Both the position numbers and the translations under genes were made by a program. From IMG/VR virus record IMGVR_UViG_3300029705_000039: a DNA stretch of 64,000 nt. One strand, 5' to 3'. Below are positions 7,977-62,498 of the stretch, piece after piece (within the stretch, counting starts at the first letter, position 1; every line of letters starts with the position of its first letter). This stretch comes from a virus. Taxonomy: Duplodnaviria > Caudoviricetes. The notes below the pieces were generated by a model that saw only the letters and a program-made list of their open reading frames with translations, ran no database searches and was not told where the DNA came from.

Positions 7977-8684
7977 GTGGTGAAAATAATGAAAATCCGT
8001 CAAGCCCCTGTGGCTGATTTACTGAAATATATTGGAGAATTATATGCTAATCGCAACCATAATAAACAAAAGAGTATTTTTGATGTTATTAATAACTATT
8101 ATTGCTCTTTAAGTAAGCATAAGACTATTATGCCAGTTGCGGGCGACTATTTTAACGATTGGTGCGATTTAAATTGGAGTCCCACTATGAAGAATTGCCC
8201 TAATATTCCTGGTATTATTATTTATAAAGATAATCCAAATGGCACAAGAAAATATGGACTAATCTATCATAGTGGCTATATTATTTCCGAGCCACTTCAA
8301 ACTAATTATATGTCTTTTTATGAAATTGATAATAATGGTCGTGTATCTTCCCATGTTTATTGTAAGGATGATTGGGATGGTTGGGGCGCGCCTATAAGAT
8401 TTTTTAGCTTCCCGCCAGAAGATTATGTTGATAGTAGCACTTGGACTTTAGGTGAACGTGTATTATCAAAAGATGTATTTGGCCACGACGTAAGGCAATT
8501 ATAGGCTTTATTACATAGAGCGCACGAGGAAGTGCCATTACATGGCTACTTTGAAGACCAAACCCTAAAAGCACTACATTTAACGCAATATTGGTGTAAT
8601 ATTCCTCAAACCAATAGCTTCAACTTAAATAGTGTTGAAGGCAAAAAAATTATTGAGTATTTAACCAATGGTAATAAAGATTAA
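7977..8684 (+). CDS. peptidoglycan-binding domain protein (1 TAG=Gln)
   Basis: GHDVRQL*ALL matches PG_binding_1 G.DV..LQ.LL; open to TAA 8684. Confidence 0.7.
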
Positions 8685-10125
8685 ACTATCTAGAGAAGAG
8701 AATATCAATTATTATGGCTCTTCTGAAATTGAACTTGATATTGAGGAATATTTAAAAGGTGTAGTTCCAAGCGAAATTGGTAATGCTCATATTGAAGCGT
8801 GCGCGGCCTAGGCTGTATGCGCTCGCACCTATGCGGTAATTAAAATTAATTCCAAAGGCTATATTACTGATGAGTCCGCAAAAGATTAGGCATTTCGGAC
8901 TTCTCGTTTAACTGGCTATCCCAATGCTTATGAAGGAATTAAAAAGACAGCGGGAGAAATATTATATTATAATAATAAAATTGCTCACTGCTATTATAGT
9001 TCTTCTAATGGCGGCCGCACTACTTCTTCAAAGGAGCGTTGGGGCGGAGACTATCCTTATCTAATTAGTTAGGATGACCCCTATGATAGTGGTAGCGGTA
9101 ATGGCCATGGTGTGGGCATGAGCCAATTAGGAGCAAAGAATCGTGCGGCCGCGGGTCAAACTTATAATGAAATTTTAAGCTTCTATTTTCCCGGCACATA
9201 TGTGCGAGGAGATGAATCTAAAGTAATGACAATCGAACAATTTATTTTAAATTGGTGTAAAGAAAGAGTAGGAAATCCTTATATTTATGGTGCAACTCAA
9301 AAGAAATGTACCGTTTCTTATCGTAAGGAACGCATGGCACAATATCCAAGCTTTGCCGCGAATATTAAAAAATATTGTTATGTCTTAAGTGGCAAGGGCT
9401 CTGCCTGTTCCAACTGTAAATGGTATGACAAAGAGCGCAATACTCATAAATATGCTTATGACTGTGCTCAATTTATTCGTTGGGGCGCAAACGCCGCGGG
9501 CCTGCCACCTGTGAAAAGTGGCGCAACAAGTCAGTGGAAAAGTGATATTTGGCAAGAGAAAGGCGATTTTAAGGATATTCCTACTAATAAGTTATGTTGT
9601 GTTTTCCGTGACAAAAATGGTACAAAAGAACATGTTGGATGGTATTATAATGGCATTGCCTATCACGCCCAAGGACATTCCACTGGTGTGGTAGCGACTG
9701 ATAATAAATAGTACAAATCTTGGACACATTATGCCATTATGACAGGTATTTATACCTCTAATGGTGTTCCTATTGAACTTAGTAATAATATTTAGCCTGA
9801 AACTTAGGATGTGATTAAAGTGCTTTATCAAGCAAAAGTAAAATCTACCGATACAAAATTAAATATGCGCAAGGAGCCTAATAAGTCTTCCGAGCGTATT
9901 ATGTATATTCCACCTCAAGGTATGGTTGATGTTATTGAAGAAACTAATGCAGATTGGTGGAAAGTTATTTATGCTGGCGAGACTGGCTATGTAATGTAGG
10001 AATACTTAACTAAGGAGTTAAGTGATACTTCTAAGGACTATTATATTAAAATAAAATGCGGGAGTGAGGCAGATGCAAGGCTTATAGCAAAAGCGCTCCA
10101 AGGCGCAGCAGTCATAGAGGGGTAA
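8668..10125 (+). CDS. endolysin: SpoIID/LytB + NlpC/P60-like + SH3b (7 TAG=Gln)
   Basis: EEYLKGVVPSE, AA*AVCARTYA, GHGVGMSQLGA; YIYGA..YDCAQF..HVGWY; LNMRKEP..WWKV.Y.GETGYV; single frame, 485 aa. Confidence 0.85.
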
Positions 10126-10420
10126 AGGATTAATTTCTATTCTCCTTGGAAATGCTGAGTTTTCCAAAAAAATGGCAGTTTTTGATACAATTTATTATAT
10201 TGTTTTCGCAATTGCTTCTATAACTTTAGCGTGTATTTGGCAACCCTTTGCCGCGATTTGCCCTGAGTTATTGACCATTTTTACTACTGGTTTAGTAACT
10301 TTGCGGCTCGGCTATGTTGCTAAGGCAGGAGCGGAAAACTTCGCAAAAATTAAGAGCACCTTTGATTCCGCGCGTGGCTTATAGGAAGAGATTAATGCGG
10401 AAGAAGAGGAAGCAGGCTAA
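10073..10420 (+). CDS. holin-like two-TM membrane protein (3 TAG=Gln)
   Basis: GAGG RBS before ATG 10073, EFSKK then two TM helices; follows lysin; start uncertain (alternative 10172). Confidence 0.55.
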
Positions 10421-10486
10421 AAATTGACTTTTTTAAAAAAATGGATTATAATGTATATGTAATAAATAAAAGGAGAGTAATATAAA

Positions 10487-10786
10487 ATGAAGTTCTATTC
10501 GGAATTAACTAACAAACTATATGATACTGCTGATGAATGTAGTGTTGAAGAAGCAAAGTTCCGCCAGGCAAAAGAGGAAGAAGAGAAGACTTACTCTATG
10601 GCTATTGCTGATTTGGACGACATTACCGCTCTATTTAAACAGTGTCAAAAGGAACAGGAAGCAGCTTATAATAAGATGGTAGAAGTTTCTCGTGAAATGC
10701 ATAAGAAATATCGTGATTTCCAGCATAGATTTGGCCGTCTACCGGAAAAGTATTATACAAATTATATAATGTCTAAAATACTTTAA
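10487..10786 (+). CDS. hypothetical coiled-coil protein
   Basis: sigmaA promoter 10424-10452 and AAGGAG RBS. Confidence 0.7.
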   Translation: MKFYSELTNKLYDTADECSVEEAKFRQAKEEEEKTYSMAIADLDDITALFKQCQKEQEAAYNKMVEVSREMHKKYRDFQHRFGRLPEKYYTNYIMSKIL

Positions 10787-10794
10787 TTGTGATT

Positions 10795-10855
10795 GAGGCG
10801 CATACAGCAATCTTTTATGGTATGAATAGCATATTTATAATATAACTGTGCCTCG
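10795..10855 (+). ncRNA. CAGCAA stem module copy 1
   Basis: GAGGCGCA-TA-CAGCAA ... TGTGCCTC-G-TTTT. Confidence 0.6.
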
Positions 10856-10861
10856 TTTTAT

Positions 10862-10956
10862 GGTTGTGTACCCAAGCGGTTATAAGGGGACTGACTCGAA
10901 ATCAGTTAGGGCGGTTCATAGCCGCTGCGTGGGTTCAAATCCCACCGCAACCGCCA
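10862..10956 (+). tRNA. tRNA-Ser(CGA)
   Basis: cloverleaf, long variable arm, loop CTCGAAA, GCCA end. Confidence 0.9.
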
Positions 10957-10968
10957 AATGGAGAAAAA

Positions 10969-11262
10969 ATGGAACATTTAGATACTATTATGAAAGAATC
11001 CGTCTGTGGTAGATGCGGCAATTTACGATATTGGGATGGATATTTTTGCAGTAATTTGCCAGAGGAATTTAATAAATACGTAGAATATACTGAATTAGAT
11101 GAATTATATCATTTTAAATTTGGTATTCAAATTAAAGAGTGTAAGCATTTTATTCCTCGCATTCCTTGTAATGTGGCGCCTGCGAATCACGAATGCCAGT
11201 TCTGGTGCTTGGGATTGCCTGGTAAGAATAAGTGTGTTTATGCTGATTTATTTTTACATTAA
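10969..11262 (+). CDS. Cys-rich hypothetical protein
   Basis: GGAG RBS, multiple Cys motifs. Confidence 0.55.
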   Translation: MEHLDTIMKESVCGRCGNLRYWDGYFCSNLPEEFNKYVEYTELDELYHFKFGIQIKECKHFIPRIPCNVAPANHECQFWCLGLPGKNKCVYADLFLH

Positions 11263-11328
11263 AAATTTGACAAAAATAAAAAATCATTATATAATATATT
11301 TATAAGGTTGAGGAAAACTCAACCATAT

Positions 11329-11415
11329 GCCCGGATGGCGGAATTGGCGAGACGCGCTCGACTCAAAATCGAGTACATTGATACACTGTGGGTTCAAATC
11401 CCACTCTGGGTACCA
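11329..11415 (+). tRNA. tRNA-Leu(CAA)
   Basis: cloverleaf, loop CTCAAAA, ACCA. Confidence 0.9.
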
Positions 11416-11419
11416 TTTT

Positions 11420-11540
11420 TAGACGTTTACAGCAAATTTTGATAGTAATCAAAGTGTCGTTGGTTCGATCCCAACATTGCAAGCCAATAATTTTGCAGTT
11501 CGCCCAGTAGGTAGGGCATTTGACTAAAAAGAACGTCTAG
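11420..11540 (+). ncRNA. circularly permuted tRNA-like RNA inside CAGCAA stem module copy 2
   Basis: T arm and 3' acceptor+GCCA precede 5' acceptor and D arm; enclosed by TAGACGTT/AACGTCTA. Confidence 0.75.
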
Positions 11541-11556
11541 TTTTATATAATTAAAT

Positions 11557-11647
11557 TGGGGATTGGTGTAATGGCAGCACGGCGGACTCTAAATCCGTGA
11601 GCCCCCTGAAGGCGTAAGTCAGGGTTCAAATCCCTGGTCCCCAGCCA
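11557..11647 (+). tRNA. amber-decoding tRNA (CTA), Gln-like
   Basis: GCGGA-CTCTAAA-TCCGT; U1-A72, G73, CCA; extended variable region. Confidence 0.88.
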
Positions 11648-11654
11648 TTATATT

Positions 11655-11718
11655 TAGACACAACCAGCAAGTTATTTGTATTGCTAATAGAGAATTGATA
11701 CGACTAAATTGTGTCTAG
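11655..11718 (+). ncRNA. CAGCAA stem module copy 3
   Basis: TAGACACAA-C-CAGCAA ... TTGTGTCTA-G-TTT. Confidence 0.6.
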
Positions 11719-11775
11719 TTTAAGTAAAAATATAAGCGCCTATATGGCGCTTTCTTTGTATAAGGAGTGATTCCC

Positions 11776-12387
11776 ATGGCTGTTTAGGGTGAAAAAATTT
11801 CATATTCTGAATTATTAAATTGGTATGAAGTATTTAATAATCTTGCTACCAATTATAGTGAAAATGTTACCGCTTTATCAATTCCTGTTTCTGGTAAAAA
11901 GGCTGAGCCTTCAGATATTAATAACCTTCATGAAAAAATTAATCAATTTCGTTCTGATACTTATCTCGGCACAAAGGCAGAATGGTTCCCTATTGGAACT
12001 GATGTAAGTAAAAATGAATATATTCGCGCTATTGACCCTACTGCTATTCTTGGCGTAGTTTCTAATGCTACTTTAGTAAAATGTCGAAATGTAGCTACTA
12101 ATACTTGTGGCGTTCATGGCAGTGGTTCTTTAAGCCACGGCAGTAAAGGGAATGGTACGTGGGGCAATACACAAAAATCTTGTGGCACAAAGTCGCATGG
12201 AGACTGGCACAATGAAGGTAATACCGATGGATGGTATTCTAGTGGTAAGAAAACGAATGGATGGTGGAGCCATAGTACCCGCAGTTGCGGAGAGCATGGT
12301 TGCGGCACTAATAATCATGCCAGCAAAGGCAACACAACTGTAATTGATATTACCTGTGTCCATTCTACAAAAGTTAATCAAGCCTAA
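11776..12387 (+). CDS. putative radical-SAM substrate with pentapeptide G/H/W/C repeats (TAG=Gln at codon 4; absent from ORF track)
   Basis: AAGGAG RBS, 203-aa open frame ending TAA 8 nt before the first rSAM gene. Confidence 0.8.
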
Positions 12388-12395
12388 GGAGTATT

Positions 12396-13772
12396 ATGGA
12401 ACATCTTTATAAAAATCTTTCTACTGTAGTTTTTTATACTTGCGGCACCTGTAATCTTAAATGCCGTTATTGTGGTATTAATAAAAATCCAATATTAAAA
12501 GATATAGATAGTGCTCTTGCCAAAAGTTTTGAAGGAGATTATTACTTTCGACGAGTAAAAGATTATTTCCCCCGTAAAGATATGCTACTTAACTTTGAAA
12601 CTTGGGGCGGCGAACCTTTTCTCCATATGGAGCGTTTATATCCAGTTTTAAAAACTCTATTGGATTATTATCCTTACTTACAAAATGGTTATTCTTCTAC
12701 CAATTTTTCTTTTGAAAATTGGAATGAAAAATTTTTTGGTTTAATGGACTGTTTTGGACAATATCCAAATCGCTTATTTAAATATTGTCTACAGCTTTCA
12801 GTAGATGGCCCTGAATATATTAACGATGCTGGCCGCGGAACAGGTGTAACTAAAAAATGCTTGGCTAATTTTAATAAATTAGTAGCGCTTTTAGCGGCGG
12901 GCCGCCTACCTAAAAATGTAGACCTAACCATTACCCTAAAGGGAACTTTAGATAATGACACTATTAAACAACTTTGTCAAAAAGATAAGATTATAGAGTA
13001 TTTTCAATTTTATGAAAATAATTTTATAAATCCTATCAAACAACTAAATTTATCTAATGTTGATATCATTCCCACAATTCCTAATACTGCGGTCCCTTCT
13101 CCTGTTACTAAAGAAGATGGAAAAATCTTTGCTAAACTAGTTAAGCTTTGTCGCGAAATCGAAGAAGAGAATAAGACTTGTAATTATTTTAATTATTATA
13201 ATATAATTACACCTTATTATAGTAATATCTGCCAAAATTGTTTAACCTACAAATATGGTTGGCATACTTGCGGCACAGGAGATAGCGTTATCGGTTTATT
13301 ACCTGATAATATGGTTTCTACCTGCCATGAGGGTTTTACCCAAATTGTAGAAGAATATCAAAAATTAGCGGCACAAGATAAGAATCTTAATTCTACGATT
13401 ACTTTCGATAAATTTAGAGATGAACAAGCGATTAGTTTATGCGTCGATGACGAAGGATTTTATGAACATCACTATAAAATGTCTTTATATCAACACGATG
13501 ATGCCACAGCACGTGTCGCAACTAGTGCTAGTTTAATTGTAGCATTAGCTCTTGCCAAACAAATTGATGAATGCTATATTAATCAGACTAACGCTTTAAA
13601 GGCCGCGATTTTTATTCAAAGTCATACTTCTTATTGTATTAAAGACAACTACAATAAGACTGGTTCTTACACTCTACCGCCCGTAGGTTTATATAAATTA
13701 TTACTTAACGGTGCGATGGAATACATACAAGGAGAAGGAGAACTAAAAGTTAATGATGTTAGAAAAGACTAA
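12396..13772 (+). CDS. radical SAM protein 1 (SPASM/twitch-like)
   Basis: CNLKCRYC, WGGEP, SVDGP, CGTG...TCH. Confidence 0.9.
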   Translation: MEHLYKNLSTVVFYTCGTCNLKCRYCGINKNPILKDIDSALAKSFEGDYYFRRVKDYFPRKDMLLNFETWGGEPFLHMERLYPVLKTLLDYYPYLQNGYSSTNFSFENWNEKFFGLMDCFGQYPNRLFKYCLQLSVDGPEYINDAGRGTGVTKKCLANFNKLVALLAAGRLPKNVDLTITLKGTLDNDTIKQLCQKDKIIEYFQFYENNFINPIKQLNLSNVDIIPTIPNTAVPSPVTKEDGKIFAKLVKLCREIEEENKTCNYFNYYNIITPYYSNICQNCLTYKYGWHTCGTGDSVIGLLPDNMVSTCHEGFTQIVEEYQKLAAQDKNLNSTITFDKFRDEQAISLCVDDEGFYEHHYKMSLYQHDDATARVATSASLIVALALAKQIDECYINQTNALKAAIFIQSHTSYCIKDNYNKTGSYTLPPVGLYKLLLNGAMEYIQGEGELKVNDVRKD

Positions 13773-15165
13773 AAATATATTTCAAAAGGAGCAAGATGCT
13801 CTTTTACAAACTGTCTTGGGGCTAAGATTCTTAGACCCCTGGACAGATAAAGAATATGATGATTTCTCATTGGTAGCAGATGCTAACCTAGAAATCTTTA
13901 TTACTAGCGCTTGTAATCAAAAATGCGAATATTGCTATCTAATTAAACATAAAGATTTATATCCGCAAGAATTTCGAGATAAAAGTTTAATATTAGATAA
14001 TTTAAGAAAATTATATGATTGGATTTATGATAATAATTATCATATCCCTCTTTGTACTTTTTTCTCTGGTGAAATTTGGCATATCAATTTTGGTTTGGAA
14101 GTATTAGATATTACTTTAGAATATTTAAAGAAGGGAATTAATATCGATAGATTTATGATTCCTTCTAATTGTTCTTTTGTCTTAGATGAATCTCAACTAG
14201 AAAAAATTCAAACCTATATTGATCTATTTGATAAATATGGATATCCTCTACAATTTTCTATTTCAGTAGATGGCGCTATTTTAGAATCTGAAACGAGACC
14301 ATTAAATAATGGAATTGCCAAAACAGAAGATTATTATGATAGATTATTTCTATTTGCTAAACATAATAATTATTATTTTCATCCAATGGTCAGCGCCTTT
14401 AGCGTGGAAAAGTGGATAGAAAATTACAAATGGTGGGAAAAACAATTTAACAAATGGGATATGAATATTTCAGCCTTAATGATGTTAGAGGTTAGAAATG
14501 ATGATTGGACAGAAGAAAAAATCACCGCTTATACATCCTTTCTTAATTTTTTAATTGATAAATATTTTGAAGAAGAATGTGGAAAAAATGTAGAAGTGTT
14601 TTCTAATCGTCTAATGAATATTCGCAATTATATTCCACAAAAAATTCATCCTGCCGAATTAGCCGGTTATACTCCTTGGGCATTACCAGAAACTGACAGT
14701 TTTATTGGTTGTACCTGCGCTAATGAACTAACTGTACGGCTTGGCGATTTGGCAATTATACCTTGCCATAGATTGGGATATAATAAATATAAATATGGCA
14801 ACTTTACATTAAAAAATAATCATATTGACACAATTGAAGCAAATAATCCTCAAATGGCAGTTAAAATCTTAATGAGCAACTTTAATCTTGCTAGTTTTGG
14901 TTGCGATACTTGTTTATTTAATCATTATTGCCTTAAAGGGTGCTATGGTAGCCAATATGAAAATATGGGCGATCCATTTATTCCTGTTCCGAATATTTGT
15001 AACTTCTTTAAAAAGAAATATAGTTTTCTTTTACAAAAGTATAAGGATATGGGAGTATTTGATTATTACAAAACTATTGCACCGCAGGAATTAGAATATC
15101 CGCGTATTAAGAAATTATTAGACCTTTTTGAAGAGTGGGAGGTTTCGCCGCTATGCAATGGATAA
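13753..15165 (+). CDS. radical SAM/SPASM protein 2
   Basis: CNQKCEYC, SISVDG, GC...PCHR...CDTC...C..GC...C. Confidence 0.9.
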   Translation: MMLEKTKNIFQKEQDALLQTVLGLRFLDPWTDKEYDDFSLVADANLEIFITSACNQKCEYCYLIKHKDLYPQEFRDKSLILDNLRKLYDWIYDNNYHIPLCTFFSGEIWHINFGLEVLDITLEYLKKGINIDRFMIPSNCSFVLDESQLEKIQTYIDLFDKYGYPLQFSISVDGAILESETRPLNNGIAKTEDYYDRLFLFAKHNNYYFHPMVSAFSVEKWIENYKWWEKQFNKWDMNISALMMLEVRNDDWTEEKITAYTSFLNFLIDKYFEEECGKNVEVFSNRLMNIRNYIPQKIHPAELAGYTPWALPETDSFIGCTCANELTVRLGDLAIIPCHRLGYNKYKYGNFTLKNNHIDTIEANNPQMAVKILMSNFNLASFGCDTCLFNHYCLKGCYGSQYENMGDPFIPVPNICNFFKKKYSFLLQKYKDMGVFDYYKTIAPQELEYPRIKKLLDLFEEWEVSPLCNG

Positions 15166-15497
15166 ACGGTATGAAAATGTTCCCTTATGGGCGAACTCCA
15201 GTACAAAATATTACTCTAGAACAATTAGAGAATGATAATATAGAAGAAATTAATATGTATCTCTTGAAAATGGCGCGCCAAATGATTATTTATTAGGAAT
15301 TAGTTAGTTGGAAAGCTGATGGAACTCGCTCTAATAAGTATGCTTACAATATTTTCCCTGATGATTTGCCTGATAATGTATCTTGTTTAAGTGCTTATGG
15401 TCAAAAGATGGTTAATGATTGGTATTCTAGAAATAAATACCATGGCGATAAAGGAGTAAAGCAGACAGATGTTGGATTTAATTATACCGGTATATAA
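15153..15497 (+). CDS. hypothetical protein (1 TAG=Gln)
   Basis: GGAGG RBS; 114-aa frame filling the gap between rSAM2 and GT2. Confidence 0.6.
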
Positions 15498-16479
15498 TAA
15501 TTTGGAAGGGTTGTATAGAACTTTGTTATCTATTGGTGCGGAAACTAAGCAAAAAGTTTACGTGACTATTGTAGATGATGCCTCAGATATTAACTATGAT
15601 GAAGTGATTCCGCTATTCCAAAAACTTTTCCCTATTCGTATTCTAAAATTAAGTGAAAATATGGGTCCTGGTGTGGCAAGACAGCAAGGCATACGAGAGA
15701 CTAATAACCCATATTTTTCTTTTATTGATTGCGGCGATACATTTTATTCTCCTTTAATATTGCCTACGATGTTAGAAGCAATAGAAAAGCATCCTCAAGC
15801 AATGATGTTTTCTTGGGCTCATATAGAAGAGAATAGCGATGGAAGTTTGGATATGGTTAATTCTTATCATAATCGCATTCATGGTAAAATTTATAATAGG
15901 GAGTTTATAAATAAACATAATATTACTTTTTCTCAATTATCCCCGTATGCAAACGAAGACATCGGCTTTAATCTTGCGTGTCGTATGATATTAAAATCTT
16001 TATATCCTGAAACAGCATTGTATTCTAATGAAGATGCGGCAGTTGTATGGAAATGGAGCGGTCCTTCTATTGTTCGTGCGAATGACTGTGAATTCTATTA
16101 TAGAAAACAACATTTAGGATTGGCTTTGAACAGTTTACACGCGATTAATATAGCAAAAGAAAATAATGTATTAGAGCGTATAATTATAGAAGAAATATAT
16201 ACAACAATGATATATTTATATATGTTCTATTTACAAACTTTATATGTAAGGCCGCAATTTAAAGATGAGGCTTATATGGGTTGCAAATATTATTATTCAA
16301 AAATTTTTAGAGAATATGGGATAAAAAACCCATCTTTATTTAGAGATTATTACTATAAAGTGCTACTTTCTTTCCTCTCCGATGAAGATGACCCAATGCT
16401 ACAATCTCTTGTAAGTTTTGATGTTCTTAAATTCTTACAAGAATTGGAGGAAAATACGCATGAGGGACTTAAAAATTAA
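15469..16479 (+). CDS. glycosyltransferase family 2
   Basis: IIPVYN, VDDAS, GPGVARQ.G, FIDCGD, NED. Confidence 0.9.
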   Translation: MLDLIIPVYNNLEGLYRTLLSIGAETKQKVYVTIVDDASDINYDEVIPLFQKLFPIRILKLSENMGPGVARQQGIRETNNPYFSFIDCGDTFYSPLILPTMLEAIEKHPQAMMFSWAHIEENSDGSLDMVNSYHNRIHGKIYNREFINKHNITFSQLSPYANEDIGFNLACRMILKSLYPETALYSNEDAAVVWKWSGPSIVRANDCEFYYRKQHLGLALNSLHAINIAKENNVLERIIIEEIYTTMIYLYMFYLQTLYVRPQFKDEAYMGCKYYYSKIFREYGIKNPSLFRDYYYKVLLSFLSDEDDPMLQSLVSFDVLKFLQELEENTHEGLKN

Positions 16480-17221
16480 ATAGGGCTTTGTAACCTTATT
16501 ATCTTCTGAAAATTATATAGAAGCGGTTTTAATTCTGAATGCCAGCCTAAAAGCAGTGCAATCTAAATATCCCTTAATAGTTGCCTGTACTCCTTCTGTA
16601 ATAAAAAATGAACGCATTATTGCGGCTCTGCTAGCAGAAAATTGTATAGTAGAGCCAATAGCACCATTACGTTTTCCAGAAGGTTTAGAACATCTTCTAC
16701 AAAAAGATTATCCTAATTTGCCAAATCTTTTAAATACCGGCGCGAAATTAGAAGTATTTTCTTTGAAACATTATGATAAACTCGTCTTTATCGACGCAGA
16801 TGGATTTTTGGTAAAAAATATAGATTTTTTATTTAATAAAAAAGATGGCTCTTCTACTATTCAAAAAGACGAGCGCGATGAAATTAGTAGTAATTGTAGT
16901 GTTTTTGTTTTTTGCCCTCGTAATCATAATATAAATTTTTATCGAGGCCTAGTATTTAAAATGGGGCACAATGATGGCGCAGTTTTTGAAAGTATGTGGT
17001 TTTAGGTTAAAGACAATGAAGATTATAGAATAAAAGATAATATCTATTATCTTCCTTTTGATGAAAATATACATACTGAAGTCTATGGTTATCATTTATG
17101 GAAACCGCATTTAAAATATTGGTTATTAAAAGATATGCCTAATACAGATTTAGCTAATTTGTATAAAAACTTTTTAATACCAATTAGAGCCAAATATAAA
17201 TTTGACTTTTCTCAAAAATAA
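16460..17221 (+). CDS. glycosyltransferase family 8 (2 TAG=Gln)
   Basis: FVTLLSSENY..., KLEVF.L..YDKLVFIDAD, H...KYW; 253 aa with read-through. Confidence 0.8.
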
Positions 17222-17259
17222 CTTTATAATATATGTAAGATGAAAGAAAGGAGTATTGT

Positions 17260-17511
17260 ATGAATAATCATATTCGTGCCCATATCCAATTAACTACCTT
17301 AGCCGATATTAACAATTTCGTAAATGAACTTAATAAAGATAATTTCACTAATTGTTATACTCTTGAAAATTTCGATGGCTCTCTACGTGTCAATGCACGC
17401 TCAATTCACGGTATAATTTATGCCGCGAGCGATTATAATGATGAAATGTTTTTAGTTAATGAAAGTAATGATGGTGCTTTCCCGTCAAGCATTGATAAAT
17501 ACAGAGTTTAA
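17260..17511 (+). CDS. HPr-fold (PTS phosphocarrier-like) protein
   Basis: FVNEL...VNARSIHGII resembles HPr VNAKSIMG; own sigmaA promoter. Confidence 0.55.
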   Translation: MNNHIRAHIQLTTLADINNFVNELNKDNFTNCYTLENFDGSLRVNARSIHGIIYAASDYNDEMFLVNESNDGAFPSSIDKYRV

Positions 17512-17514
17512 AAT

Positions 17515-17543
17515 TTGACAATTTTAAAAAAATAGTATATAAT
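17515..17543 (+). promoter_or_regulatory. sigmaA promoter driving the tRNA/ncRNA array
   Basis: TTGACA-17-TATAAT. Confidence 0.8.
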
Positions 17544-17581
17544 ATTTATACAAGGTTGAGGGAGATAACTCCCTCAAATAT

Positions 17582-17657
17582 GGGTATATAGTCCAGTTGG
17601 TAGAACGGTAGACTGTTAATCTATATGTCGGGGGTTCGAGTCCCTCTATACCCGCCA
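17582..17657 (+). tRNA. tRNA-Asn(GTT)
   Basis: cloverleaf, loop CTGTTAA. Confidence 0.9.
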
Positions 17658-17916
17658 CTTGTATCATCTAATGATACTAACCCTTAACACGGATTTTGAG
17701 AGTTTAAACTACCACCGGCCAGAACGACAAATGACGGATATGTGGCTAGCGGAAAAGGGTATATAAAGAAGCGAAGCAAAACTCTCAGCTGTACAGCGGG
17801 CTTGGCCCTTACCGATACAAGGCTCCTAATGCGGCTAAGTATGGGAAGAAGCGGACATTAGCGTTATGAGTGATGTGAAAATCACCATCATCCCGGGACG
17901 AGACGCCGGATCATTT

Positions 17917-23135: not shown

Positions 23136-23291
23136 AGCCGAGTAGCCAAGTGGAAAGGCACGGGACTTCGTAAAGTAGTGTAATTGGTAGCAATGTTTCC
23201 GGTTAGCGCGCAGGGGACGGTGTTGGTTCGAATCCAACCTTTACGGCCATGACTCCCGCATTCGCTGGTTCGAGCCCAGCCTCGGCTGCCA
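23136..23291 (+). tRNA. tRNA-Gln(TTG) split in its anticodon by a nested tRNA-like RNA
   Basis: CGGGA-CTT|insert|TGAC-TCCCG; acceptor AGCCGAG/CTCGGCT, GCCA. Confidence 0.85.
23169..23249 (+). ncRNA. nested tRNA-like RNA (81 nt) ending in GCCA
   Basis: CGTAAAG/CTTTACG acceptor, D loop TGGTA, T arm GTTGG-TTCGAAT-CCAAC, 12-nt non-canonical anticodon loop. Confidence 0.85.
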
Positions 23292-30950: not shown

Positions 30951-31739
30951 ATGGGATTAATTTATATGCTAACCAGCCCCAGTGGAAGATCTTATATTGG
31001 ATAGACAAAGCGACCCTTTACTATACGATGGAATCAGCATAAAAGAGAGGCGGAAACTGGAAATGATACTCCTCTTTATAAAGCCATACGAAAATATGGC
31101 GCCGATTCTTTTTAGCATACAATATTAATAGAAACAGATAATGACAAATTAAATGAGTTAGAATAGTATTATATTAAATAGTATAATACGTATAATAATG
31201 GTTATAATTGCACTATCGGTGGCGAAGGAAATTGCAAAATTTCTGATGAGACTATTATTCAACTTTGGGAGAGTGGGTTGTGCTCAGCAGATATAGCACG
31301 GCAATTAAATGTATAGGGACATACTATTGAAAATAGAATTAAAAGTCTTTATTCTGATGCTGAAATATAGGAACGTCGATACGCTTCAATTGGGAAAAAA
31401 CTTCAATTAAAAGATAATAATATAAAAACTCTATGGGATTAGGGCTATAGTGTTACTTAGATTTCGGATATATTATCCTATGATAGACATACAGTAAGCC
31501 GTGTTTTATAGAGACTGGGAATTACTCCTGAACAGTTAGAATATTCTAGAAAGGCCCACAGCGGTGATAAGAAAAATTCTCCCATAATACAATATGATAA
31601 AAATGGTAATTTTATATAGGAATGGTTTTCAATTAGTGAAGCGGCGAGACAATTAAATATTCACGCTGGTAATATTTGCAAAGTTCTAAAAAAAGAAAGA
31701 AAAACTACTGGTGGTTATATATTTAAATATAAGGAGTAA
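30951..31739 (+). CDS. GIY-YIG homing endonuclease with HTH and NUMOD1 (10 TAG=Gln; absent from ORF track)
   Basis: MGLIYMLTSPSGRSYIG*T; GYNCT.GGEG; SISEAAR...GGYIFKY. Confidence 0.85.
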
Positions 31740-56508: not shown

Positions 56509-57334
56509 AAGTGCAAACTACAGCTCATGTAAAATCTTTTGAACCTCGCCCGAGGGTGTCTGCGTAAGCAGGCTAACGGTTAGGTCCCACGAGGATGAGA
56601 CCGTGCGAAGATTCGTTATAATATTCATCTCTGTGAGGTGAATATATGGAAGTTTATAAGATTACTAACCTAATAAATGATAAAGTTTATATTGGTTAGA
56701 CAATTCGACCTATTTAGTAGCGTTTTCATCGGCATATAAGCGATGCTATGAATAATATACTTGATACACATTTTGCAAGAGCAATAAGAAAATACGGTCC
56801 AGATAATTGGAAAATAGAAAGTATAGACATCGCTAAAACATAGGAAGAATTAAATCAAAAAGAACAGTATTGGATTAATTATTATAATTCTGTTATAGAT
56901 GGATATAATGAAACAAATGCCATTAGCAAGTGCGGTGGAAATACTTATCAATCTAAAACAGAAGAAGAAATGAAAATTATTAAGGAAAAGATACGAAAAA
57001 CTAAACTTGGTGGTAAAAATCCCATGGCACGAAAAATAAAAAGAACAAATATACAAACTGGAGAAACCGATATTTTTGAAACAGTTATATCTTGTGCCAA
57101 AGCTTGCGGGATACAAAATGGAAAAACATCAATTACCACCCGGCTAAATAAACAAATAACTTCTCCTTATAAAAATACTTGGACTTTTGAATATTATAAC
57201 GAATAACGTGTATCGACTATCCCTGATGAATGTAAGGGAGTAGGACAGGAGATAGGCACCTGTCCGAAGCGGAAGACTATCTTGACAAAGATAGAAGATA
57301 TAGTCAGTGCTGATGGCAACATCAGATAAACATG
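56509..57334 (+). mobile_element. group I intron in nrdD
   Basis: exon ends in U, intron ends in G; splicing restores TMG|CRT; P7-type CGACTA / GATATAGTC. Confidence 0.9.
56646..57206 (+). CDS. intron-encoded GIY-YIG homing endonuclease (4 TAG=Gln)
   Basis: MEVYKITNLINDKVYIG*T...GYN; NUMOD-like tail. Confidence 0.85.
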
Positions 57335-59031: not shown

Positions 59032-60033
59032 ATGGATATCTTTATTATTATATGTCTAATTGGTTTATCTCTTTACCTTGCTTATAAATATACTCAATTA
59101 CAAAAGTAGCAATCTAGTTATAAGGAACTATAGACGGATATTTAGAACGCGAATAGTATCTTAGACGATATTAAAGCATAGACTAAAACCGCCACAGAAG
59201 AGCTACAAGATATATAGCAATCTTAGACTAGTCATCAGTTTGAATTGGTTGCTCTACTTGCTAAAGAAGACGAATTACGCAAAAATATTGATAGTAATTA
59301 GGCAATCGTAGCAAGCCAAACCGAAATTATTAATAACTATCGAGAGCAATACAGTGCCCTAAAAGATGAGTAGGATAAAAAATGTCTACAAATCATTTAG
59401 GATACTTCCTTAAAAATTAATTAGATTGAAGCAAGTTATAAATTAACTATTGAATAGAAGGAACAAGAAACCAAAGCGATTATTGAATAGTTAGCTGCCA
59501 ATCTTGAGGAAGAGCGGCAAAAATATCTTTCTATTATCGAAACTGTCTAGAATGCTTAGACAGAAGATGAAAAAGATGCCAATAGGCATATTAAAATTCG
59601 TGATGCCACAAAAGATGATATTAATTATCTTTTAAATAATGTTGCCAATAAACTATCTAATCCTGATATTTTATATAAGCTTATTTGGTCTGAATATATT
59701 CAAAAACCTACTAATGAGATGTTAGACTTTATTTTACCACAACGTGATTGCCCGGGTATTTATAAAATCACTAACGATAAAAATAAAAAAGCGTATATCG
59801 GTCGTTCCACTTCTGTCCGTAAACGTCTAACCGACCACATCAAAAGCGCGGTTGGCATAAGCACCATCGCGGATTAGCGAGTTCATCAAGCAATGCGGGA
59901 AGAAGGCTTATGGAATTTTACTTTTGAACTGATAGAAGAATGCGATAAAGACAAGCTTAATGAGCGAGAAAAATTTTATATCCAATTCTTCTCAACCGAA
60001 CAACTTGGATATAATCAGAAAGCAGGAGGCTAA
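59032..60033 (+). CDS. membrane-anchored coiled-coil GIY-YIG nuclease (15 TAG=Gln; absent from ORF track)
   Basis: N-terminal TM, long coiled coil, GIYKITN...YIGRS...R...H...E..GYN. Confidence 0.85.
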
Positions 60034-60963: not shown

Positions 60964-61758
60964 ATGCCCACTAATGATTGGACTGAATTATTTGATAGTT
61001 TTCAAGAACTATTTGCTATGACAGACGAAGATTTAGAACGAGTAAAACCTATTATTCTACGCGAAATTTCTGAAAATATTAGCGGCCCTAATTCTCTTGT
61101 CAGTATTGAGAATTATATTAAGGAATGCGATTTAATGGGATATGATATTAATCGATATAATGAAGATATCGAAAATAGTCGTATCTTAATCTATAATACT
61201 ATGATGGAACTAAAAGAGAAATATGCCGATTCCGAAATGAAGGCAGAATTAATTGATAATATCTATAGCCTTATGGAATCTTATTTAGCCTTAGTTGCTC
61301 TTAAAGTAGCCAATCGTGAAAGCGCGAATATTGGTATTGAATTGATTCATCCTGCTGCTAAGATTCCTACTTACGCCCATGATGGCGACCAGGGTGCTGA
61401 TATTTATGTTCCTGAGGATAACATTATCCCTGCCAATGCACGCGGCCATATGGTTCATACTGGCATCAAACTCTTAATCCCTCGCGGCTGGGCAATTTCT
61501 ATTCGACCTCGTAGTGGTATGAGTAAGAATACCCCCTTGCGCATTTCCAATTCTCCTGCGACTATCGACCAGCAGTATCGCGGAGAAGTTAATATTCTTT
61601 TTGATAATTTGAGTGATGAACCTTATGAAATTAAGGCTGGCGAACGAATTGCTCAATTTATCTTAGAAAAGAATTATAAGGCAGATTATAGTCAGGTTGA
61701 TACTGTTGAGCCTGATACCGACCGCGGCGAAGGCGGCTTTGGAAGTTCTGGCAACTAA
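60964..61758 (+). CDS. dut: dUTPase with about 120-aa N-terminal extension
   Basis: GADI, RPRSG, TIDQQYRGE, ERIAQ, RGEGGFGSSG. Confidence 0.92.
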   Translation: MPTNDWTELFDSFQELFAMTDEDLERVKPIILREISENISGPNSLVSIENYIKECDLMGYDINRYNEDIENSRILIYNTMMELKEKYADSEMKAELIDNIYSLMESYLALVALKVANRESANIGIELIHPAAKIPTYAHDGDQGADIYVPEDNIIPANARGHMVHTGIKLLIPRGWAISIRPRSGMSKNTPLRISNSPATIDQQYRGEVNILFDNLSDEPYEIKAGERIAQFILEKNYKADYSQVDTVEPDTDRGEGGFGSSGN

Positions 61759-62498
61759 TGGCAATTAATATTTTCACGGTTTAGTCAGACCTTGAAAATG
61801 CTGGTTGGTAGTTATTATCTACTACATATAAAAATTTAAAAACTCCTCTTGAAATGGTATGTCCTAAAGGGCATATCATTCAAGAGACTTATGAAGTTTG
61901 GCGTAAAAAACACGAATGCTCTGAATGCGCAAAGTTGGCGGCCAAGGCATCAAAAAGAAATAAATTACCATAGAAAAATAATAATGTTTATCGTATTTTA
62001 GCCCTGGACGCCGCCACCGGTACAACAGGCTATTCAATTTATGACGATAAACAATTAGTTGCTTATGGAACATTTACTACACAATATAGTGATGATTCTA
62101 CTGATAAAATTAATTAGGTAAAAAAATGGGTAGATGAAGTTTGCCAAGTTTGTGCGCCAGATGCTATTGGTATTGAAAATATTTAGTATCAAAAAGAACA
62201 CGGTGTAAAAACATTTTAGACACTTGCCAATTTATAGGGCGTCCTATTAGATTTCTGTTTTGAAAATCGCGATAAATATAAATATGGCTTGGCCGCGTCT
62301 TCTACTTGGCGCTCATATCTAGGAATTAATCACGGCGATTAGCGCGAAAGTGCAAAGAAGTAGGCATAGTCCTATGTAAAACTTATGTTTGGAATTGATG
62401 CCACACAAGATGAAGCGGATGCTATTTGTTTAGGTAAATATTTTACAAGTAAATTTATAGAAAAGCGAAAAATCGCTTGGGGAGAAGATATTTTATGA
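61758..62498 (+). CDS. RuvC-like Holliday junction resolvase with N-terminal Zn finger (10 TAG=Gln; absent from ORF track)
   Basis: CPKGH...CSEC; ILALDAATGTTGY, IE, WR, DEADAI. Confidence 0.85.

Follow-up and report, generated by a model that had tools for sequence, protein, structure and literature searches.

What do the radical S-adenosylmethionine (SAM) enzymes and the glycosyltransferases encoded side by side in a TAG-recoded phage genome act on? This question is raised by positions 11776-17221 of a 64,000-nucleotide stretch of the IMG/VR record IMGVR_UViG_3300029705_000039 (Caudoviricetes), the whole of which is called here the window. An earlier note on this DNA had described in that region six coupled genes, including a hidden 203-amino-acid (aa) repeat protein, a description with which coordinates, Shine-Dalgarno (SD) motifs and junctions all agree. 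The six genes, all on the + strand and all recovered as open reading frames (ORFs) in their expected places, are translationally coupled: an SD-like motif (AGGAG/GGAGG-like) stands ahead of each of them, and the junctions consist of an 8-nt gap or of overlaps of 13-29 nt. When the region is read with genetic code table 11, the long ORFs are those of two radical SAM enzymes (rSAM1 and rSAM2) and of a family 2 glycosyltransferase (GT2) alone; reading TAG as a residue adds three more, encoding the 203-aa protein, a 114-aa protein and a 253-aa GT8-like putative glycosyltransferase (Table 1). To judge by gene order and sequence, the two radical SAM enzymes very probably take the neighbouring repeat protein as their substrate, and the cassette rather probably performs a maturation of a whole protein, made late, that resembles the one undergone by ribosomally made peptides that are modified after translation (RiPPs).

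The substrate assignment is carried mainly by the conservation of the module in related loci, which are identified here by L numbers. These were collected from the enzyme side with rSAM2, and then with a four-sequence profile, yielding 50 IMG/VR loci and 12 loci on contigs of metagenome-assembled genomes (MAGs). The IMG/VR contigs are mostly 120-197 kb long, and the MAG contigs, labelled Faecalibacterium, Clostridium, Oscillospiraceae and Bacilli, are probably phage. The order repeat protein-rSAM1-rSAM2 is kept over rSAM2 identities from 58% down to 28%, with rSAM1 preceding rSAM2 in nearly all loci. In 52 of 61 loci, according to a hidden Markov model (HMM), the gene directly upstream of rSAM1 encodes a protein of 150-560 aa with the N-terminal domain (N-domain) of the window protein. 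Such a gene was recognized by eye in eight of the other nine, where either the frames were merged by reading TAG as Gln or the gene was located approximately 1.6 kb upstream; L066 is the sole locus left over. From the protein side, where four members were chosen arbitrarily and three of their contigs extended far enough downstream to be informative, an rSAM1 homologue was found right behind the gene in all three. The proposal that the 203-aa protein is the rSAM substrate is thus supported by synteny in both directions, and homologous rSAMs devoid of an adjacent repeat protein, the observation named in the earlier note as contrary to it, are not what these loci present.

The family defined by the N-domain is large. 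Its profile retrieves 616 clusters at 50% identity (E<=1e-3), or 322 at E<=1e-10, in which the domain is always N-terminal; separately, one family member, L068:2690-3517, shows the reverse order, with Phe/Ser repeats first and the conserved domain at the C terminus. Longer fused forms of the N-domain were not found, which is weak evidence, and the long family members hold no Pfam domain, except for P0117, with a C-terminal Hint/intein-splicing domain. Several phage contigs carry two or three modules with different tails; on 3300045988_177309 (L022/L031/L038) and on 3300045988_175607 (L023/L033/L035), three separate modules with unrelated tails are encoded on a single contig.

This synteny also bears on the possibility that the rSAMs and glycosyltransferases have another target (a sugar nucleotide, a cofactor, polymers of the host wall, or bases of DNA or tRNA) and that the N-domain protein serves them as a scaffold or chaperone, or is a late protein unrelated to them. 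In the window, the cluster does lie among tRNA genes and near genes of nucleotide metabolism, host glycans are a frequent target of phage GT2 enzymes (phrog_22739, GtrB-like), and neither a fit of the rSAMs to a curated peptide-maturase family nor a RiPP recognition element (RRE) was found. However, the tRNA neighbourhood is not kept in the relatives, while the enzymes keep a near-universal, tight linkage to a protein that shares only the N-domain and a repeat tail rich in the residues used by rSAM cross-linkers. In addition, the SPASM region is nearest to those of the peptide maturases CteB and QhpD, and YcaO, an enzyme of the peptide backbone, is also recruited to these loci. On balance, a target other than the repeat protein is quite unlikely.

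The substrate itself consists of two parts. Residues 5-110 are predicted with confidence by AlphaFold2 (AF2, 26 homologues) as a helical domain, and the strand formed by residues 105-109 (KCRNV) is predicted to pair with that of residues 187-191, in the C-terminal VIDIT. Neither the whole protein nor the N-domain belongs to any family in Pfam, NCBIfam or PHROGs, and the N-domain has no match among the Protein Data Bank (PDB) sequences. The model of the domain found nothing at E<=0.001 with Foldseek against PDB and BFVD, and the wide VIA search gave a best Z of 5.7, a value that is not meaningful for a helical domain; its weak TssK/IglD matches were left aside. The second part is the tail, composed of 17 pentads of the form [C/H/N/S/D]-G-x-[K/W/H..]-[S/G/T], with six Cys, eight His and five Trp. 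Its identity at lags of 5, 10 and 15 residues is 0.21, versus 0.095 +/- 0.018 in shuffled tails, and none of 20,000 shuffles reaches 0.21, so the period of five residues is genuine. The protein cannot, however, be counted among the classical pentapeptide-repeat proteins (A(D/N)LXX, quadrilateral beta-helix), because Gly occupies position 2 of the pentad, the expected core position, in 11 of the 17 units; moreover, the substrate has no match to the pentapeptide-repeat families of Pfam, and AF2 shows no helix in the tail.

The tail is the part of the protein that changes. Compared to P0002, a relative with 86% identity, the window protein is 94% identical in the N-domain, 70% in the tail and 100% at the C-terminal end. 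In four groups of close relatives, the ratios of nonsynonymous to synonymous substitution rates (dN/dS) are 0.08-0.21 for the N-domain, 0.06-0.26 for the tail and 0.04-0.11 for rSAM1 and rSAM2. These tail values indicate that its frame is a selected coding sequence and led to the rejection of positive selection on the tails, the diversity of which seems to arise by repeat turnover. Across the family, tails are rich in Ser (15.5%), Asn (13.7%), Gly (11.8%) and Thr (10.8%), along with Phe, Cys, Tyr and His; the repeat period is 5, 8, 9, 11 or 12 residues depending on the lineage, and the longest tails reach approximately 450 aa (L021).

The products of cross-linking radical SAM enzymes are thioethers, when Cys is the donor, or cyclophanes, when an aromatic residue is. 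The family Cys are typically found within C-S-N-G-T, the aromatics are followed by an enrichment of Gly or Ser at +1 and of Ser, Thr or Ala at +2, and the most invariant tail residues of one clade are Cys, Phe, Gly and Tyr. In the window substrate, 11 of 14 aromatics have Ser, Asn, Asp or Thr at +2 (by eye). The tail of L070 holds no Cys and the whole proteins of L050 and L057 only one or two, these tails being built of Phe/Tyr/Asn/Ser/Arg units; consequently, a thioether-only chemistry fails for the family as a whole. Judging from composition, the tails fit substrates of cross-linking radical SAM enzymes, though not of one single chemistry. The same composition bears on whether the tail might be left unmodified, acting in metal binding or adhesion, with the rSAMs introducing a single local change such as a formylglycine or an epimerised residue. 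Such a role could suit the window protein, whose pentads start with Cys, His, Asn, Asp or Ser and in which His follows Cys by two to five residues (by eye), as well as the weak matches of rSAM1 to the anaerobic sulfatase maturase and twitch-domain families. Nevertheless, many family tails lack both Cys and His and are rich in Phe, Tyr, Asn and Ser, the repeats suggest repeated sites, and the module always retains two distinct rSAMs, to which other enzymes are often added, all of which makes an unmodified tail highly improbable.

The earlier note had taken both enzymes for radical SAM/SPASM proteins. Both are indeed radical SAM enzymes, but SPASM is restricted to rSAM2. The cysteines of the CX3CX2C motif, accompanied by WGGE in rSAM1 and by SGE in rSAM2, are invariant throughout the 49 homologues of rSAM1 and in 98% or more of the 57 of rSAM2, with Pfam PF04055 scoring below its cut-off in both (15.5 and 26.4 bits, respectively, versus 29.5). 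In rSAM2, seven further cysteines (C320, C338, C384, C387, C393, C397 and C416), invariant in the 57 sequences, form the SPASM motif CX9-15GX4C...CX2CX5CX3C...C, and TIGR04085 scores 22.3 bits for a cut-off of 27. This seven-Cys motif binds two auxiliary clusters. rSAM1 does not present it and is not a SPASM enzyme, because only three further cysteines are invariant in its 49 sequences (Table 1); this pattern points to one auxiliary cluster, twitch-like at most.

The two enzymes are alike in the radical SAM core only, and both match phrog_1802, annotated as 'radical SAM domain-containing protein'. Their NCBIfam matches are dominated by maturases of peptides and proteins (QhpD, nif11-type, PapB, ScmE, HxsB, SCIFF, YhhB and anSME). 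Against the PDB sequences, the sole match of the rSAM2 profile is the peptide maturase CteB (5wgg), in the SPASM region (E 3e-5), whereas the best match of rSAM1 is weak, the rSAM domain of 'ChlB' (9gm3, E 2e-3). Two unusual forms of rSAM2 were observed: the homologue in L060 (3729-6200) has 823 aa, about 350 above the usual length, and a further rSAM2-like ORF, L007:11318-13477, shows intein and LAGLIDADG matches.

Homologues of the 114-aa protein are encoded directly 3' of rSAM2 in 23 loci, all of the clade of the window. The fold of this partner was modelled on the TAG-free homologue of L010, for which AF2 gives a beta-meander plus a helix with a pLDDT (predicted local distance difference test) score of 86.6. 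The model matches no known fold (Foldseek; the best VIA hit has a Z of 3.1, with a root-mean-square deviation of 2.9 A over 42 residues), and the partner therefore cannot be called an RRE.

As for the glycosyltransferases, the earlier note had proposed a GT2 and a GT8. The first is a clear member of PF00535 (65.7 bits versus a cut-off of 23.3, residues 4-127), with DDASD and DCGD motifs, and recurs in the module: it occupies the same position, after the small protein, in L010, L013 and L060, which are the closest relatives, and comes soon after rSAM2 in L061. Three distant clades encode, one or two genes away from the module, a fusion of GT2 with a third radical SAM domain, which is N-terminal and NrdG/QueE-like (Table 1), and these fusions tie glycosylation to the system independently. 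The GT8 assignment, in contrast, is unconfirmed: PF01501 gives 20.0 bits versus a cut-off of 24.3 (E 5.7e-4, profile positions 2-124 of 253), with a DAD (DxD) motif recognized by eye.

Other enzymes join the module elsewhere. A YcaO protein (PF02624, E 7e-30) is encoded next to the substrate in ten loci, L007 (5212-6996) and nine others, with no recognisable partner protein. The recruitment of RiPP-type enzymes, i.e., YcaO in those loci and GT2 either free or fused to a third rSAM, was counted in favour of a maturation system. The distant clades also add a tandem pair of paralogous proteins of approximately 290 aa with three invariant Cys, of which L003 shows one copy. U32-like proteins include oxygen-independent hydroxylases, and the pair was considered as a U32 peptidase; this candidate was dropped, as it had one weak Pfam match only (E 0.0065) and no support from PDB or NCBIfam.

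Whether all this amounts to a RiPP pathway, as the earlier note had suggested, depends on how strictly the term is used. Substrate and enzymes are linked by synteny, but a dedicated leader protease together with an export system, as a strict RiPP pathway would have, was not found in the 71 loci. No protease or exporter is conserved across them; a C39-like peptidase two genes after GT2 in L060 (7842-8393) and a ClpP-like protease after GT2 in L010 (8140-8778) are isolated occurrences, conserved nowhere else. A true RiPP, in which the N-domain would be a cleaved leader and a small cross-linked, perhaps glycosylated peptide would be freed at lysis as a toxin, signal or inhibitor, would account for a conserved N-terminal part followed by a hypervariable C-terminal one, as in proteusin or Nif11-type precursors, for the maturase-like rSAM matches, and for the YcaO and the two isolated proteases. 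It is at odds, however, with the lack of conservation of protease and exporter, with tails of the length seen in L021 and with the absence of any NHLP or Nif11 leader match. In addition, the prediction pairs the conserved strand at the C terminus with the last part of the N-domain, so that the tail would form a closed loop on a folded domain. A classical pathway of this type, with leader cleavage and export of the peptide, is therefore considered unlikely. Since the searches turned up neither a conserved protease or exporter nor a recognised leader-binding element, the maturation of a whole protein in a RiPP-like manner, rather than of a small peptide, is the reading that we favour.

The timing of this maturation would be linked to the genetic code of the phage. 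The window is part of a TAG-recoded genome, in which many + strand genes hold up to 15 in-frame TAGs, and contains 24 tRNA genes (ARAGORN), including a tRNA with anticodon CUA located 129 nt upstream of the substrate start. The substrate opens with ATG GCT GTT TAG, TAG being codon 4 (11785-11787), and ATG, GTG and TTG are absent in frame from its other 199 codons (naive p ~1.4e-4). Since there is no alternative start, no part of the substrate can be translated without TAG decoding, which upholds the dependence that the earlier note had assumed. Where the window has its codon-4 TAG, the aligned codon of L010 and L013 is CAA (Gln), and for this reason a Ser-type suppressor, considered because of the long variable arm and G73, was dropped in favour of Gln. 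Thus, to judge by these alignments, the suppressor tRNA would supply the decoding that the substrate requires, with TAG read as Gln.

The distribution of TAG reported for the cassette was also recovered: of the Gln-type codons, it accounts for 4 of 17 when substrate, small gene and GT8-like gene are pooled, versus 0 of 42 for the pool of rSAM1, rSAM2 and GT2 (Fisher p = 0.005, gene groups picked post hoc). The derived proposal of early enzymes and a late substrate fits the window phage, but it is not general, as the recoded relatives L007, L024, L025 and L067 hold 3-15 TAGs in their rSAM genes. The earlier note had put forward a virion fibre, a toxin or an anti-defence factor as possible products; late gating argues against an early anti-defence role. 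The TAG-richest genes of the window, with 4-15 TAGs, encode a SpoIID-SH3 lysin, a RuvC-like resolvase and three homing endonucleases of the GIY-YIG type (Table 1), and within the window recoding is thus as much a mark of mobile nucleases as of late genes. A tRNA-like gene with the four-base anticodon 'agcg' is also present (23169-23249, ARAGORN).

TAG-to-Gln recoded gut phages are known to carry suppressor tRNAs, and a delayed translation of late genes has been proposed in the literature on them (e.g., PMC10879173, PMC11210395, PMC10607447). The window resembles these phages in its suppressor tRNA(CUA) and in the presence of in-frame TAGs in a subset of genes. It differs from them in that a single TAG at codon 4, just 3' of the suppressor tRNA gene, gates a protein devoid of any other start, and in that its TAG-rich genes are mostly those of homing endonucleases, a RuvC-like protein and a lysin.

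The cassette is located in the window between the SpoIID-SH3 lysin gene (8668-10125) and the tRNA array. Perfect 12/12 sigma-70-like promoters precede tRNA-Leu (11267-11295) and tRNA-Asn (17515-17543), and the GT8-like gene ends in an 11/12 match (17202-17230). No good sigma-70-like promoter was found between the hairpin at 11734-11752 and position 11776, the nearest 12/12 consensus being that of tRNA-Leu; because the cluster has no good promoter of its own, its transcription may come from read-through of the tRNA unit, or else start at an unrecognised or phage-specific promoter. Over 10400-17700, Rfam detected nothing but tRNAs.

To place the module in its wider context, 136 flanking ORFs from 32 non-redundant loci were scanned against PHROGs. 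The flanks are mixed, with PhoH, topoisomerase, a sigma factor, a few tail proteins, holin and endolysin or lysin, and only about four of the 136 ORFs are related to tails. Tail or baseplate genes do lie immediately upstream of the module in a few loci (L017, L014 and L001), but with flanks so mixed a location in the tail module was rejected as a general rule. The window gene at 8668-10125 has no homology to the tail-fibre-like gene upstream in L001, being a SpoIID-SH3 lysin. Given this heterogeneity, the cassette behaves as a movable accessory block. No structural family or fold that would assign the substrate to tail fibres or virions was matched in PHROG, Pfam or fold searches; a virion role for the product is nonetheless possible.

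Contigs from several runs of faecal metagenome sequencing, possibly with the source samples among them, carry the stretch 11776-17221 without a difference. Among phage records, the window DNA has no blastn match, and tblastn gives nothing for rSAM2 and one weak match for rSAM1; a cultured relative was not found.

In the mechanism that we infer, which covers the action of the enzymes on the substrate, the type of modification, glycosylation, timing and biological role, the 203-aa precursor would be translated once the amber suppressor tRNA is active. Its conserved helical N-domain would serve as a docking, leader-like domain, and rSAM1 and rSAM2, helped by the 114-aa partner, would modify the pentad tail. 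The likeliest changes would be intramolecular cross-links: Cys could form thioethers, and/or Trp, His, Tyr or Phe could be joined by carbon-carbon links to a residue close by. The tail, rich in Ser, Thr, Asn and Cys, would then be glycosylated by GT2 and, probably in this phage, by the GT8-like protein as well. The product would stay a protein and appear late, on the virion surface or freed at lysis, as a compact, protease-resistant and variable module. A broader version can be put forward tentatively, in which large gut phages would make a viral material of a new type, namely a full-length protein with a low-complexity repeat tail stapled by the two rSAMs and, in some lineages, heterocyclised or thioamidated by YcaO and glycosylated, giving a protease-proof and rapidly diversifying surface or post-lysis module, in this phage under an amber gate.

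Several observations weigh against this mechanism. Both rSAMs score below every curated NCBIfam cut-off (12-36 bits versus 170-520), so far below that the chemistry cannot be transferred from the curated families, and with 0-2 Cys in some tails, one common chemistry is not obvious. Residues 111-184 of the substrate have no confident structure (AF2, tail pLDDT <50). An RRE or PqqD-like element was not detected in any of the six proteins, either with Pfam or in the fold searches with the partner model, and the GT8-like gene, besides its sub-threshold assignment, has no homologue in the 71 loci and is unique to the window phage. The partition of TAG between substrate and enzymes is absent in other recoded relatives, and a virion role is not backed by position, given the heterogeneous flanks.

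Table 1. Coordinates of the cassette and of related features (window positions, unless an L-numbered locus is given)
Feature	Position	Strand	Remarks
Suppressor tRNA, anticodon CUA	11557..11647	+	ARAGORN; Rfam tRNA 50.6 bits
Terminator-like GC hairpin and T-run	11734..11752	+	Between the suppressor tRNA and the ribosome-binding site of the substrate
Putative precursor/substrate protein, 203 aa	11776..12387	+	N-domain, residues 1-110; 17 pentads, residues 111-195
Pentad-repeat tail of the substrate	12106..12360	+	17 units; likely modification region
rSAM1	12396..13772	+	CX3CX2C (C19, C23, C26), GGE motif, C292/C310/C414
rSAM2, radical SAM/SPASM	13753..15165	+	CX3CX2C (C54, C58, C61) and seven SPASM Cys
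Partner protein, 114 aa	15153..15497	+	TAG at codon 48 (15294)
GT2, 336 aa	15469..16479	+	PF00535; TAG-free
GT8-like putative glycosyltransferase, 253 aa	16460..17221	+	TAG at codon 8 (16481) and at 17003
TAG-richest genes	30951-31739, 56646-57206, 59032-60033, 61758-62498, 8668-10125		
rSAM-GT2 fusions	L057:66-2069, L070:438-2420, L050:7134-9221		N-terminal radical SAM domain, NrdG/QueE-like
Paired ~290-aa 3-Cys proteins	L057:6782-8549, L070:6828-8581, L036:7038-8865, L034:7059-8835, L052:6539-8316, L003:8261-9151		

Among the systems studied experimentally, CrpA/CrpC from Methanococcus voltae is the closest precedent. In this archaeon, an rSAM/SPASM enzyme introduces ranthionine links into a protein of unknown role, whose N-terminal domain aids enzyme binding and whose Cys-rich C-terminal repeats are poorly predicted by AlphaFold (PMC13692751, 2026). 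The phage module shares with it a substrate of protein size, an N-terminal domain (for which docking is here proposed) and poorly predicted C-terminal repeats. However, CrpA and the phage substrate have no sequence relation, and CrpC belongs to TIGR04463 and has an RRE, unlike the two rSAMs of no curated family found here, with no RRE detected. The phage module further differs in its extra conserved small protein, its glycosyltransferases, its phage carrier and its many tails without Cys.

Other resemblances are looser. The His-Xaa-Ser system (HxsA with HxsB/HxsC; TIGR03978), which is bacterial and uncharacterised, also encodes a repeat precursor beside two different radical SAM enzymes, and the window tail holds His-x-Ser triplets (HGS twice and HAS), although the family tails in general do not. 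rSAM2 scores 19.2 bits for HxsB, with a cut-off of 370, and no match to HxsC or HxsA was obtained. The maturases of ranthipeptides and sactipeptides (CteB/SCIFF, PapB/freyrasin and NxxcB) and QhpD share the seven-Cys SPASM domain, and QhpD also acts on a protein subunit. Their substrates present repeated Cys near Asn, Asp or Thr, and in the phage family C-S-N-G-T followed by Cys gives an N-x-x-C spacing; in the window substrate, the Cys are not in N-x-x-C or C-x3-D motifs. The scores for these families are 15-36 bits for cut-offs of 340-453, those for the curated ranthipeptide and sactipeptide models (PapB, SCIFF, etc.) being 15-26 bits for 340-425, and some tails are Cys-free, which places the phage enzymes outside them.

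Finally, the triceptide synthases XyeB/YhhB, GrrM/OscB, FxsB and HaaB/HtkB act on repeat substrates made of aromatic-x-polar triplets (PMC11499958). Such triplets are present in the window substrate, a likeness that is not a membership criterion, whereas triceptide precursors are short and have cleaved leaders, unlike the phage protein; the models for YhhB, GrrM/OscB, FxsB and AmcB give 11.9-17.8 bits versus 310-445 (E 0.003-0.08). On the sequence evidence, the likeness to the Hxs, ranthipeptide and triceptide systems is one of logic and not of family.

In the literature, no description was found of a phage system of this kind, combining radical SAM enzymes and a repeat protein. What is known is the radical-SAM maturation of ribosomal peptides and proteins; what is new is the substrate family, the two uncurated enzyme families, the partner protein, the viral carrier and the amber-codon gate. 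If the proposed maturation is true, the cassette would be the first RiPP-like system for protein maturation that is encoded by a virus and has a defined gate in the form of a code switch, and the making of radical-SAM-matured proteins would extend from bacteria and archaea to phages. New chemistry to mine would come with it, in a new substrate family of over 600 clusters, a new partner and two enzyme families outside the curated ones. The locus would also provide a testable case of control by recoding, in which a single amber codon decides whether the pathway has a substrate. For the phages themselves, stapled and glycosylated proteins could explain stability in the protease-rich gut, or a new source of variation in the recognition of host or mucus.

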